A stretch of 13,120 bases of DNA, taken from contig CAYJUQ010000019.1 in assembly GCA_964373425.1 (NCBI GenBank), positions 1 through 13,120 of the forward strand. The letters run 5' to 3'. A model generated the notes under the pieces. The model was not told where the DNA came from. It worked only from the letters and a program-made list of their open reading frames with translations, and searched no databases. Positions 8,653-12,757 of this stretch are shown piece after piece. Positions within the stretch are counted from its first letter, which is position 1. Each line of letters opens with the position of its first letter. Source of the stretch: an uncultured Candidatus Saccharibacteria bacterium. GTDB taxonomy: Bacteria > Patescibacteriota > Minisyncoccia > JAHCSD01 > CAYJUQ01. The translations under genes were made by a program, and so were the position numbers.

Positions 8653-8686
8653 AACGGGGGGGCAGACCCCTACGGTTGCGCTATGT

Positions 8687-8718
8687 AAAATGCCACGCGG
8701 TTCTTTGCGTGGCATTTT
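8687..8718. terminator. Bidirectional intrinsic terminator between convergent genes
   Basis: AAAATGCCACGC-GGTTCTTT-GCGTGGCATTTT followed by GTTT. An A-run and a T-run flank a 12-bp stem. It lies between the galU stop (8652) and the stop of the minus-strand ORF (8722). Confidence 0.75.
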
Positions 8719-8721
8719 GTT

Positions 8722-9069
8722 TCACTTTCTTTTTAGTATCTCGAATGATTCCACCTCGCCCGTACTCAATGTTGCACTACCACCCTCAAGACCGAATTCG
8801 AGTCGCAGCCCCCTGATAATCCATCCGGCCTTGAGCACGTTGTCGGTTCCTTTCGATCCGCGGAACCAGACCTCCTCCCCATTTTTGGTAAAGTGTTTTC
8901 CTCCATTGAGGAATACCCTTCTCTTTTTAGGGTCAAGGACGATGAGCTCATACGAGGTCGGTGTCGAGGGGTTTCTTGTGATAACACGGATTACGGTCCT
9001 TCGAGAGAGCCTTTCAATACAGAGTCGGTTATCTGACTCGTCTTTAAGTGATTCAGTTCTTCGCTTCAA
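8722..9069 (-). CDS. Hypothetical small protein (115 aa) with a TTG start
   Basis: Strong SD GGGAGGT 5 nt upstream of the TTG at 9067-9069 (minus strand). It has its own promoter and is convergent with galU. The basic N-terminus and the core SYELIVLDPKKRRVFLNGGKHFTKNGEEVWFRGSKGTDNVLKAGWIIRGL show no motif I can assign. Confidence 0.6.
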   Translation of the reverse strand: MKRRTESLKDESDNRLCIERLSRRTVIRVITRNPSTPTSYELIVLDPKKRRVFLNGGKHFTKNGEEVWFRGSKGTDNVLKAGWIIRGLRLEFGLEGGSATLSTGEVESFEILKRK

Positions 9070-9123
9070 CTTATACCTCCCATCTCTTGTTTTGTCTTGG
9101 CGGGTGGGCTAAGCGATGTGGGT

Positions 9124-9152
9124 ATGATAGCAAAATTTTTCTCTCGTGTCAA
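9124..9152 (-). promoter_or_regulatory. Putative sigma-70 promoter TTGACA-17-TATCAT (minus strand) for the 115-aa gene
   Basis: Minus-strand TTGACA corresponds to plus 9147-9152. There is a 17-nt spacer, then TATCAT at plus 9124-9129. Confidence 0.45.
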
Positions 9153-9651: not shown

Positions 9652-10821
9652 TCATACATCAGGTTTCATAATAACCGAGAGAATCATACCAACCGTACTC
9701 CAGTCAGCAAGATTTTCGAGGAGCAATTCTTTAAGAGATCGGATTTCAACATAGGTTCTCTCGCCCGTGGGATTATCCTTGCTTAGCCCATGGACAATCC
9801 CTTCTTGTTGATGCAGCCACTCAAGTTCTTTCTGCGTAAGCTTCACAGAAAATACATGGGCCGTGTGGGTCGAAAAAGTTCCAACAAGCTGCCGCCTGCC
9901 GTGTGACTTAAGGCGTTCTTTCTCTACCGAGAATCCGGTTTCTTCGTTTACTTCTTCGGAAGCGACTTCGAGAGGATCAGTATTTGGTGTAAACGATGAA
10001 CCTCCGGGAAGTTCCCAGATGAATCCATCGGGAGTTCGGGCAGGACTCCGAAATTCACGGACAAGCACAACTTTTGATTCCAGAATCTTGCTCTCGGGGT
10101 AGTACATGACCACCGTAGAGATGTCGGGCCGAGAGAGGATAACCTCGTTTGTTTTGTTTCGGTTTTCTTTGGCCACATGGACGTTTACATGCAGGGCCCA
10201 ACAGTAAACATTATTGCGTTTCGGGCCAACGCGGAATACCCATTTTACTGCGGCGCCATCAAGACGATTTCCTGCTCCTTGCTGGGTTTGATACCACGAC
10301 TGGAATTGAGATGTATTCCAGATCATGAGAGGAACATACCGTTCGCCTTCCGCGCGAAGAGCTCCATTGCCAACCATTTGAAGCGCATACGCAATGGTTT
10401 CCCGTAACGTATGGGCTTCTGGGATACCTGTTTTTTCAGCTACAACGCGTAGGTAGTTAGTCTTCGGTGCCTTTTGGGGAGCACCAAAGACAACCTTTGC
10501 CGATTCGGCCCAAAGACCAAACTCGACATTTGTGGTAAAGGCGGGCATCGTCTTCAGATTCCTTGGTACCCAGAATACGATGCAATCTGCGATTCCGAGC
10601 ATTCGATGTTCCCAATCGATTTGTGAGCGGTATGACCAGGTCATTTTTCCATCTCTGCTTTCGGGGACAAATACTACCCCGTCGTAGCCACACTTCGTAA
10701 GAATGCGCAGGGCTCGAGGCCGCCACGATGCAACCGTTGCTGATCGAGGAGTTGGTCCGGCAAGAAAAAGAGATTTGGTAAATGAACTCGGGGGTTCTTC
10801 CATCGAATACACCACGTGCAT
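9652..10821 (-). CDS. Two-domain fusion protein: an N-terminal DNPH1/Rcl- or nucleoside 2-deoxyribosyltransferase-like domain and a C-terminal Nudix hydrolase domain
   Basis: SD GGAGGG 5 nt upstream of the ATG. The N-terminal region (FLAGPTPRS...GVVFVPE...IDWEHRMLGIADCIVFWVP...TNVEFGLWAES) follows the DNPH1/NDT fold pattern (FCGSIRGG...LTEHV...DLEWLQQADVVVAEV...GVGYELGRA), including the catalytic Glu. The C-terminal region carries a degenerate Nudix box (GGSSFTPNTDPLEVASEEVNEETGF) flanked by beta-rich segments. Confidence 0.75.
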   Translation of the reverse strand: MHVVYSMEEPPSSFTKSLFLAGPTPRSATVASWRPRALRILTKCGYDGVVFVPESRDGKMTWSYRSQIDWEHRMLGIADCIVFWVPRNLKTMPAFTTNVEFGLWAESAKVVFGAPQKAPKTNYLRVVAEKTGIPEAHTLRETIAYALQMVGNGALRAEGERYVPLMIWNTSQFQSWYQTQQGAGNRLDGAAVKWVFRVGPKRNNVYCWALHVNVHVAKENRNKTNEVILSRPDISTVVMYYPESKILESKVVLVREFRSPARTPDGFIWELPGGSSFTPNTDPLEVASEEVNEETGFSVEKERLKSHGRRQLVGTFSTHTAHVFSVKLTQKELEWLHQQEGIVHGLSKDNPTGERTYVEIRSLKELLLENLADWSTVGMILSVIMKPDV

Positions 10822-10944: not shown

Positions 10945-11766
10945 CTACAAAAATCGATTAATGTCTCCTGCGAAGATAAGGAAGATAAGCGTTACAATTG
11001 CAACTATCGAGACGAGTCCAAAGAGCGGCAGCGCTTGTTTTCCGAGCACCCGTTCGATAATCATCCCGAAAATCCTGCCACCATCAAGCGGCAGAAGCGG
11101 CAGCATGTTGAAAATGCCGATTCCGAAGGAGATAGCCACCGCAAGGCGGAACACCTCGATCGCCGTCTTCAACGTCGTTGCTTCATGCGTGATGCCGATG
11201 GGGCCGATCAGTATCGGATCTTTGTCTGCCGGAGCACCGCCGTGGAGCGCTGATTCCTGAAAGTTTTCTATAAGTCCTGGAATCAGGGTGTAGAGGAGGA
11301 GGCCCACAAACGCAAGGCCGAGTATCGGAATACCGATGCTGCAGAATAGTTTCGAAAATCGCACGATGACAAGGGCAATCGCAGTCATGGCGATAAGACG
11401 AATGTAGACCGCCGGTTCACCAAGATCTTTGAAAATAAAGAGCGCGATGATCGTAAGGAGACTCCCCACAAGGACGTTTCCGAGCACTCCCGCGCCGAAA
11501 ATCAAAGCGCGCTCGCGGTAGGGGAGGGCATTTGTTTGTTGATTGCCTCGCGGTGTTGGCTCAACATAAGCACCGAGGAAGATGGGGGAGAGGGTTAAGG
11601 GGAACGAGAGCCATGGTACTCGAAACCGAAATATAAATCCCGGAATCGGGATGCCGAGCCCCGCTTCTTTAATCTCTACACCATACCTTCGCATCGCAAT
11701 CGCATGCGCAGCTTCATGAATTACAAGGTTCAAAATCAAAAACACAAAGATGAACGCGATATTCAT
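10945..11766 (-). CDS. M50 family site-2 protease (zinc metalloprotease), minimal type without a PDZ domain
   Basis: HExxH motif within a TM helix (VIHEAAHAIAMRRYGV). A second conserved motif is NMLPLLPLDGGRIFGMI (the LDG motif). About 6 TM segments are predicted. Length is 273 aa. Confidence 0.85.
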   Translation of the reverse strand: MNIAFIFVFLILNLVIHEAAHAIAMRRYGVEIKEAGLGIPIPGFIFRFRVPWLSFPLTLSPIFLGAYVEPTPRGNQQTNALPYRERALIFGAGVLGNVLVGSLLTIIALFIFKDLGEPAVYIRLIAMTAIALVIVRFSKLFCSIGIPILGLAFVGLLLYTLIPGLIENFQESALHGGAPADKDPILIGPIGITHEATTLKTAIEVFRLAVAISFGIGIFNMLPLLPLDGGRIFGMIIERVLGKQALPLFGLVSIVAIVTLIFLIFAGDINRFL

Positions 11767-11812
11767 CCAACAGCCGCCTTTCTGGGTACATTTTCAAAGT
11801 GCGGAATGGTTG

Positions 11813-11841
11813 ATATTACCACACGGATGTACATACCGCAA
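11813..11841 (-). promoter_or_regulatory. Putative promoter TTGCGG-17-TGgTAATAT (extended -10, minus strand) for the M50 gene
   Basis: Minus-strand TAATAT corresponds to plus 11813-11818 and is preceded by TGG. The -35 hexamer TTGCGG corresponds to plus 11836-11841. Confidence 0.3.
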
Positions 11842-11970
11842 GCGTTTTATCATAGTTCAAAACCCGGGAATAATCCTACAGCGAAAAATCTAACCATCCC
11901 ACCAAGTATAAAATTGACAATCTTCGCGACAAGCCCCCCAATGCTTGGCATTGAGGATACCCCTGCGTTT

Positions 11971-12047
11971 GACAGACGGTATAAGAACTGCTAGACAGAT
12001 CTATATTGTTAGACAGACCCATACTGCGAGACAGATTTATATTGTAT
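11971..12047 (+). repeat. Four tandem direct repeats of (A)GACAGA-N3/4-ATA-N-TG with an 18-22 bp period (iteron/operator-like)
   Basis: GACAGAcggtATAag at 11971, AGACAGAtctATAtTG at 11993, AGACAGAcccATAcTG at 12011, AGACAGAtttATAtTG at 12030. The run ends in TTGTATAAT (a -10-like sequence at 12045-12050), immediately before palindrome copy 1. Confidence 0.6.
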
Positions 12048-12051
12048 AATT

Positions 12052-12106
12052 CCCATCCGGCAAATACTTCCATGCTTTTAAGCATGGAAGTATTTGCCGG
12101 GATGGG
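12052..12106 (+). repeat. Long palindromic element, copy 1 (about a 27-bp stem with a 1-nt bulge), overlapping the start of the TrpR-like gene
   Basis: CCCATCCGGCAAATACTTCCATGCTT-tt-AAGCATGGAAGTATTTGCCGGgATGGGG. A related copy is found at 12709-12757. Confidence 0.7.
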
Positions 12107-12633
12107 GTCACGCATTAATGGCGAGATCAAGATTATCAAAACCACTCACGAAAGAAGACGAAGAGTTACTTGTAGAGTTTTGTGAAGCACTCGTTGCCTT
12201 GAGTACTCCGGAAGAGGCAGGAAAGTTTTTATCGGATCTCCTTTCGAATGTTGAGGCGCGTATGTTTGCGCGTCGTCTTAAAATTGCAAAGTTTCTTTTG
12301 GCTGGCTGGACATTCAGTGAAATCGAAAACAGTCTGAAGGTTGGCCCCGCTACCATCGCGAGGGTAGGTGAATGGCTGAAAATATACGGTGACGGATACC
12401 GACTTGTGGAGCAACGAACGAAAAGAAAGCTAAAGCAACCCTCGCTTGCGCGGGATCACCTTTGGCGAAACCTCAAACGACGCGCTCCATTAGCTTTTTG
12501 GCCAGAAATGCTTATCGAAGATCTCGTCCGGAATGCGAATAAGAAACAAAGAGAACGGATGACGCGTGTGTTGAGAGCGATGGATCAGAAGTCAGAACTT
12601 TATAAACGAATAGATCAACTTCTGAAACAATAA
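12094..12633 (+). CDS. TrpR/YerC-YecD family helix-turn-helix DNA-binding protein with a basic C-terminal extension. The ORF track starts at TTG 12094; the in-frame ATG at 12118 (MARSRLSKPL...) is the likelier start.
   Basis: Trp-repressor-like fold signature: LSTPEEAGKFLSDLLSNVEARMFARRLKIAKFLLAGWTFSEIENSLKVGPATIARVGEWLK (the TP-E...R..I...LL.G.T..EI...LGV..ATI.R pattern). The K/R-rich C-terminal region is about 80 aa. Confidence 0.7.
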   Translation: MPGWGHALMARSRLSKPLTKEDEELLVEFCEALVALSTPEEAGKFLSDLLSNVEARMFARRLKIAKFLLAGWTFSEIENSLKVGPATIARVGEWLKIYGDGYRLVEQRTKRKLKQPSLARDHLWRNLKRRAPLAFWPEMLIEDLVRNANKKQRERMTRVLRAMDQKSELYKRIDQLLKQ

Positions 12634-12666: not shown

Positions 12667-12700
12667 GTTTTTTTCTCGCCAAGTTTTTTTTCTCGTCAAA
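12667..12700 (+). repeat. Tandem T-rich direct repeat (GTTTTTTTCTCGCCAA / GTTTTTTTTCTCGTCAAA)
   Basis: Two adjacent copies, 16 and 18 nt long, 34 nt after the stop of the TrpR-like gene and just before palindrome copy 2. Confidence 0.5.
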
Positions 12701-12708
12701 TTGAAATC

Positions 12709-12757
12709 AGACAAATACTTCCACGCTTAAAAGCGTGGAAGTATTTGCCGGGATAGG
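12709..12757 (+). repeat. Palindromic element, copy 2 (17-bp perfect stem), 42/49 identical to copy 1 with a compensatory T>C/A>G change in the stem
   Basis: CAAATACTTCCACGCTT-aa-AAGCGTGGAAGTATTTG followed by CCGGGATAGG. The right-hand 30 nt is nearly identical to copy 1 (AAGC[A/G]TGGAAGTATTTGCCGGGAT[G/A]GG). Confidence 0.7.

Follow-up and report, generated by a model that had tools for sequence, protein, structure and literature searches.

A tandem array of short direct repeats lies between the gene for a TrpR-like protein and a divergently transcribed M50 protease gene (10945-11766, minus strand), and it raises the question of whether repeats that end directly at a perfect -10 hexamer represent a replication origin, a regulatory site or a remnant of the promoter itself. 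The array was analysed within a stretch of 13,120 nucleotides from an uncultured Candidatus Saccharibacteria bacterium, which is referred to as the window. A sequence-only reading of this DNA had proposed either an iteron-type origin or a set of operator sites for a regulator that binds cooperatively, at a promoter that might be occluded by the repeats. The features concerned are the following:

11905-11932, minus strand: candidate promoter of the M50 gene, TTGTCG-16-TATACT (9/12 match), outside the array.
11969-11974, plus strand: perfect -35 hexamer TTGACA, also the first 6 nt of unit 0, now 70 nt from the -10 hexamer.
11969-11990, plus strand: unit 0, TTGACAGACGGTATAAGAACTG, 22 nt, consisting of the -35 hexamer and a 16-nt spacer, as read from the sequence.
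11991-12044, plus strand: 54-nt array of three 18-nt tandem units, cTAGACAGATCTATATTG, tTAGACAGACCCATACTG and cGAGACAGATTTATATTG; the TRF call begins one base later.
12045-12050, plus strand: perfect -10 hexamer TATAAT, 6 nt before the core of the palindrome and one of two TATAAT in the window.
12052-12106, no strand: palindrome copy 1, whose perfect 21-bp arms (12057-12077 and 12080-12100) can be extended if one bulge is allowed; candidate operator for the TrpR-like protein.
12118-12633, plus strand: gene for a 171-aa protein of the TrpR/YerC family that has, in addition, a C-terminal domain of about 70 aa with four helices.
12712-12747, no strand: palindrome copy 2, located 79 nt downstream of the stop codon; it differs from copy 1 by a symmetric T/A to C/G change.

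The pattern AGACAGANNNATANTG is matched exactly by three units (11993-12008, 12011-12026 and 12029-12044) that recur every 18 bp exactly, compared with 0.05 matches expected by chance and none of 200 shuffles that reached three. TRF delimited the same tract (11992-12045, period 18, 3.0 copies, score 66) as the sole array of its kind in the window, and no further copy of the motif (of the AGACAGAnnnATAnTG type) was found in the 13 kb even when three mismatches were allowed. Of the four direct repeats with a period of 18-22 bp that had been described, three are thus exact, while the fourth, unit 0, is degenerate: it is 22 nt long, differs by a 4-nt indel and does not fit AGACAGANNNATANTG even with one mismatch. 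It nevertheless has GACAGAC, ATA and CTG in common with unit 2, in register (compare TAGACAGACCCATA----CTG). Neither inspection of the sequence nor TRF revealed an internal repeat of 10-11 bp within the units.

The array is identical, with three units each, in three conspecific assemblies from different samples, namely the window and the Logan assemblies L001 and L002. Both Logan contigs encode the same TrpR-like protein, and the nearby differences are confined to one SNP and a change in the length of a poly-C tract. As two independent assemblies reproduce it, the array is no assembly artefact and must be regarded as real and stable. It is also old and tolerated, because the units have diverged from one another at 2-6 of 18 positions (11-33%) while the conspecific contigs are about 99.8% identical and the gene is intact. 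All three units agree in 12 of the 18 columns and vary in six; the longest invariant run of seven columns is at chance level (P = 0.18 for random placement of the six variable columns), and 10 of the 12 pairwise differences are transitions. The variation among the units therefore looks neutral and is compatible with drift.

Two open reading frames cross the array, and neither was retained. The plus-strand frame that would start at the TTG of the -35 hexamer (RQIYIV/RQTHTA/RQIYIV) has no ribosome-binding site and no conservation and was judged spurious, and translation of an 89-aa minus-strand frame across array and palindrome (11876-12145) is implausible. At the RNA level, the array has only a trivial TATA self-complementarity, and the palindrome dominates the fold of 11960-12125.

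The TATAAT hexamer that had been noted at the end of the repeats is indeed present, and it was correctly observed that no -35 hexamer lies at a proper spacing of 16-18 bp from it; the best candidate on the plus strand is CTGCGA-15-TATAAT, with a 9/12 match. The -35-like hexamers in and next to the array (TTGACA, TAGACA, TAGACA and GAGACA) likewise have no -10-like hexamer at 16-18 bp, the spacers being 4, 5, 11, 22, 27, 29 bp and larger. Yet a perfect TTGACA is located exactly 16 + 54 nt upstream of TATAAT, so that the repeats split a consensus promoter, and the idea of a repeat-occluded promoter was borne out in this sense. The actual spacing is 70 bp, whereas in silico removal of exactly 54 nt (11991-12044) creates TTGACA-16-TATAAT, a 12/12 match to the sigma-70 consensus with a spacing in the normal range. 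The probability of such a pairing by chance is only about 1e-3, because the window contains, on both strands, seven TTGACA and two TATAAT, and no other pair is separated by a multiple of 18 nt.

The comparison with other promoters points in the same direction. Six promoter matches in the window are near-consensus (10-11/12), all of them intergenic and four upstream of the gene that they point toward; by these matches, the organism is one that uses near-consensus sigma-70 promoters. The TrpR-like gene departs from this pattern as long as the array is in place. The reconstructed promoter adjoins the palindrome, which would begin at about its +1 position, and the same layout is found in an ortholog (L003), where TTGACA-16-TATATT precedes the homologous palindrome by 17 nt and no array is present.

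On balance, we favour, by a modest degree, the view that the array arose by a lineage-specific amplification in which the -35/spacer segment of the TrpR-like promoter itself was multiplied in tandem (3 x 18 bp); the units are paralogs of that segment, since unit 0 shares GACAGAC, ATA and CTG with them in register. The ancestral state would have been a consensus sigma-70 promoter, TTGACA-16-TATAAT, that fired into a palindromic operator about 6 nt downstream. Slipped-strand duplication of the -35/spacer segment, favoured by the adjacent long palindrome, would have produced the units, and the array would now uncouple the -35 from the -10 hexamer, promoter use being judged here from consensus matches. 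The TrpR-like gene might be weakly transcribed at present, for example from CTGCGA-15-TATAAT. The units would be bound by no dedicated protein, and the recurring AGACAGA would be a decayed -35 hexamer TTGACA plus two bases and not a recognition motif. It should be noted that the array cannot simply kill the promoter, because the intact gene must be expressed, and a functional role for the array, such as activator sites, is possible. The main interest of the array is as a clean example of a consensus promoter that can be dismantled when its own -35/spacer segment is amplified.

The downstream gene encodes a TrpR domain of the YerC/YecD type (residues 16-100 of 171), as indicated by matches to Pfam PF01371 (E = 6e-14), to NCBIfam TIGR02531 (above its cutoff) and to the PDB entries 3frw, 3g1c and 3kor (E = 1e-17 to 1e-19), as well as by a structure model (pLDDT 87.8) with TM scores of 0.82-0.91 to 3frw. 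The conserved four-helix C-terminal extension had no match among solved structures. Translation most likely starts at ATG 12118 (MARS...) and not at TTG 12094 inside the palindrome, because the N-termini of relatives match the former, and therefore the gap between the M50 and TrpR-like genes is 351 nt and not 327 nt, as it had been given. HMMER retrieved 169 family representatives below 1e-10, typically of 170-190 aa, and nearly all relatives are on Patescibacteria MAG contigs (by title or sequence family). A DUF5656 protein and the housekeeping genes likewise mark the genome of the window as of Patescibacteria type. When the neighbours of the gene were clustered, they proved not to be conserved, and no target gene common to the loci was found.

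For the conservation of the array, 54 loci were compared, comprising the conspecific L001 and L002 and 52 non-conspecific loci, namely L003 (P0002), with 64% identity, and about 51 distant ones; the loci were retrieved with a 6-sequence alignment, a 40-sequence alignment being too diverse. Conservation of motif and spacing in orthologous gaps had been expected of a functional array, but the motif is absent from 52/52 non-conspecific loci, including L003, the sole moderately close ortholog, and within the 54 loci it occurs only in L001 and L002. Non-conservation is a weak test at such a distance, because there is one informative ortholog and its upstream neighbour gene differs. Further searches were negative as well: single-protein scans of genome and metagenome contigs found no relatives, a scan of viral contigs for the array pattern found no match, and BLAST of the 181-nt region of array and palindrome (11940-12120) found no match in 72,556 plasmids and 50,697 phages. 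The next best match to the M50 protease is only 39% identical, indicating that the lineage is poorly sampled.

Iterons of theta-replicating plasmids such as R6K, RK2, P1 and pPS10 are arrays of at least three direct repeats of about 17-22 bp, spaced by about two helical turns (21-23 bp). The array resembles them in the number and length of its repeats, three to four of 18-22 bp, but in little else, and an iteron-type origin is extremely improbable. The period of 18 bp is about 1.7 helical turns and thus out of helical phase, only three units are good and the fourth is degenerate. The ten main ORFs of the window include no Rep, DnaA or other initiator gene (Pfam matches are SPFH, ClpB, DUF5656, trypsin-like protease, RmlB-like, nucleotidyl transferase, deoxyribosyltransferase/NUDIX, M50 and TrpR-like), no DnaA box TTATCCACA with up to one mismatch occurs in 11767-12117 (five one-mismatch matches occur elsewhere in the window), GC contents of 35-52% in 60-nt windows around the array leave no AT-rich stretch for unwinding, and the GC skew does not turn. 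The context is chromosomal, with housekeeping genes on a Patescibacteria genome; the relatives are Patescibacteria MAG contigs, with no similarity to plasmids or phages, and the orthologous loci lack the array. A more serious alternative, although still unlikely, is that the units are sites for a regulator that recognizes direct repeats and acts as activator or repressor on the TrpR-like promoter, the M50 promoter or both. Pho boxes and other direct-repeat sites of the OmpR/PhoB type can replace a -35 element. The array likewise abuts a good -10 hexamer that has no -35 hexamer at proper spacing, its proximal unit stands where the -35 element would be, it lies between two divergent genes, 12 of 18 columns are common to the units, it is stable in three assemblies, and some promoter must work because the gene is intact; moreover, the minus strand of the units, TCTGTCT, is reminiscent of the Pho-box CTGTCAT. 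However, sites of response regulators repeat at 10-11 or 21 bp, those of the OmpR/PhoB type being direct repeats of 6-7 bp with a 10-11-bp period, while the period of 18 bp puts successive units on different faces of the helix, and their orientation would be opposite to the TrpR-like gene. There is no response regulator nearby, the TrpR-like gene being the sole regulator gene of the window, the conservation among units is no better than chance placement of variable columns, and neither another locus nor the rest of the window contains the motif. That the regulator is the TrpR-like protein itself, with the units as extra degenerate half-sites of a cooperative multi-site operator, is very unlikely. 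The sites of TrpR and HisR (YerC) proteins are palindromes of about 20 bp, with half-sites of the ACT type, and not direct repeats, and the proteins often autoregulate (PMC9413887). The array shares with such operators the vicinity of the promoter of a gene for a YerC-type TrpR-family protein (PMC9413887), it adjoins the palindrome, and tandem binding is possible for TrpR (PDB 1trr; PMC9413887). In addition, unit 2 contains CAGACCCATACT, which is similar to the arm edge CAGACAAATACT and takes rank 11 among 26,218 positions with an outer-arm matrix. With the family arm matrix, in contrast, the best match in the array has rank 12 (6.7 bits) and the others rank 19 or lower, which is background. 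Palindrome copy 2 does have the AGACA at its edge that had been pointed out, but gapped alignment of the array with the palindrome arms gave p = 0.24-0.96, so that the similarity is within chance. The units are direct and not inverted repeats and do not resemble the half-site of the family, and conservation across orthologs is a property of the palindrome and not of the array; an operator role fits the 44-55-bp palindrome at 12052-12106 and not the repeats, for which the proposal of a multi-site operator is not supported.

A further alternative requires no binding protein at all, in that gain or loss of units could alter the spacing between -35 and -10 and switch the TrpR-like gene heritably on or off. 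Phase-variable promoters with repeats in the spacer include those with the TA repeats of Haemophilus hif and the poly-G of Neisseria porA. As in these cases, the tract lies between the two hexamers, and spacing and promoter strength would depend on it, with zero units yielding the 12/12 promoter; a poly-C tract nearby also varies among conspecific contigs (6 versus 8 C). Nevertheless, a switch of this kind is distinctly improbable. The hif and porA tracts have identical units of 1-7 bp, whereas the array has diverged units of 18 bp, and their divergence of 11-33% disfavours frequent slippage; the copy number is three in 3/3 assemblies, without any polymorphism. No attainable copy number except zero would restore a working spacing, the -35-like hexamers within the units being 11, 29 and 47 bp from the -10, and zero cannot be reached by slippage between units, while exact excision would have only a 2-nt microhomology (TG) to rely on. 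The array looks like a lineage-specific duplication and not like a replication origin or a conserved protein-binding array. For this reason, the finding as such is fairly ordinary. The array alone carries little weight; it does, however, point to a palindrome-bracketed TrpR/YerC-like gene that is present in many Patescibacteria.

The TrpR-like protein has its candidate operator in this palindrome rather than in the direct repeats, because it is conserved in the family and because sites of TrpR and HisR are palindromic (PMC9413887). With a family arm matrix that was built without the window, the four arms of the window rank 1st, 2nd, 4th and 6th of 26,198 positions (1st and 4th for copy 1, 2nd and 6th for copy 2), and the arms of the family align to about ACAAATACTnCnATACT-N4-AGTATnGnAGTATTTGT. 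In L003 the same palindrome is found on both sides of the gene (651-706 and 1367-1414), with symmetric changes. Throughout the family, a long palindrome lies just upstream and another just downstream of the gene, and the two copies resemble each other in any one genome but differ from those of other genomes; the similarity of upstream and downstream flanks exceeded the 99th percentile of between-genome controls in 24/46 loci. Two MAGs contain two paralogs each (L015/L017 and L005/L040), and every paralog has its separate palindrome. Metagenome contigs that were scanned for the palindrome pattern yielded no match, and no description of a palindrome-bracketed TrpR/YerC-like cassette was found in the literature searched. 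To our knowledge, regulators of candidate-phyla bacteria are almost unstudied.

In four loci the upstream palindrome itself contains a promoter (L011 1432-1460, L014 1425-1453, L024 1205-1233 and L032 1409-1437): the left arm supplies the -35 hexamer TTGACA at its outer edge, the right arm supplies the -10 hexamer (TAGTAT or TATGAT) in its core, and the spacer is 17 bp. The presence of a promoter in the upstream palindromes of several distant loci argues for an action of the palindrome at the DNA level, as an operator, and against one as an RNA hairpin. A sequence that matches the outer palindrome arm GACAAATACT and has the top score with the outer-arm matrix, GGGACAAATACTACCCCG, occurs at 10664-10681 inside the 9652-10821 gene; as this is coding DNA, the match is probably due to chance.

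Tandem repeats beside the palindrome are not restricted to the window. In 41 loci, 24 short tandem direct repeats were found within 120 nt of the palindromes, about sixfold more than the 4.0 +/- 1.6 in dinucleotide shuffles, whereas other intergenic DNA of the same loci contains 11 arrays versus 3.9 in shuffles. The raw densities are 4.6 per kb beside palindromes and 0.7 per kb in other intergenic DNA, although the latter is an imperfect control, since it was defined by the absence of ORFs of at least 90 aa and may contain small genes. The sequences of the repeats differ from genome to genome. The excess of repeats fits local slippage beside a long palindrome, as palindromes can stimulate slippage, and the array probably arose in this way. 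The cassette together with the unstable DNA beside it is thus of greater interest than the array. It is also conceivable, although improbable, that the repeats are not debris but a selected device that keeps split the promoter of a TrpR-like autoregulator found throughout Patescibacteria, and that the excess of repeats by the palindromes is a functional or mechanistic property of the cassette. If this were true, the split promoter could be re-joined when, on rare occasions, repeats are lost or when some factor binds the three units or wraps them, and the property of the cassette could be recombinogenic palindromes or a rapid rewiring of promoter spacing.

Several of the flanking repeats in other loci repeat -35-like TTGA elements (L006 569-613, L013 1288-1309 and L044 1380-1407). 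In the window, a second tandem repeat of two copies, AGTTTTTTTCTCGCCA and AGTTTTTTTTCTCGTCA, lies just before the downstream palindrome (12667-12699), and L003 has a 16-nt two-copy repeat at the same place, where TTTTCTCGTC is common to both genomes (1298-1329 and 1338-1347 of L003 for these features).

A few observations concern the remainder of the window. The poly-C tract (11934-11939) is located directly upstream of the -35 hexamer of the candidate M50 promoter and has 6 C in the window and L001 and 8 C in L002, which may be a polymorphism of homopolymer length beside a promoter; in L001, position 11943 is in addition changed from G to A. Neither tRNA nor tmRNA genes were found in the window, and Rfam gave no match at gathering thresholds and, at E <= 1, generic hairpins only, far below the cutoffs. 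A strong promoter-like site on the minus strand, TTGACA-17-TATCAT (9124-9152, 11/12), points into 8722-9069, which suggests that the real gene may be the 115-aa minus-strand ORF; the competing plus-strand ORF of 140 aa at 8690-9112 is without a Pfam match. At 8685-8720 there is a 16-bp hairpin followed by a T-rich tail.
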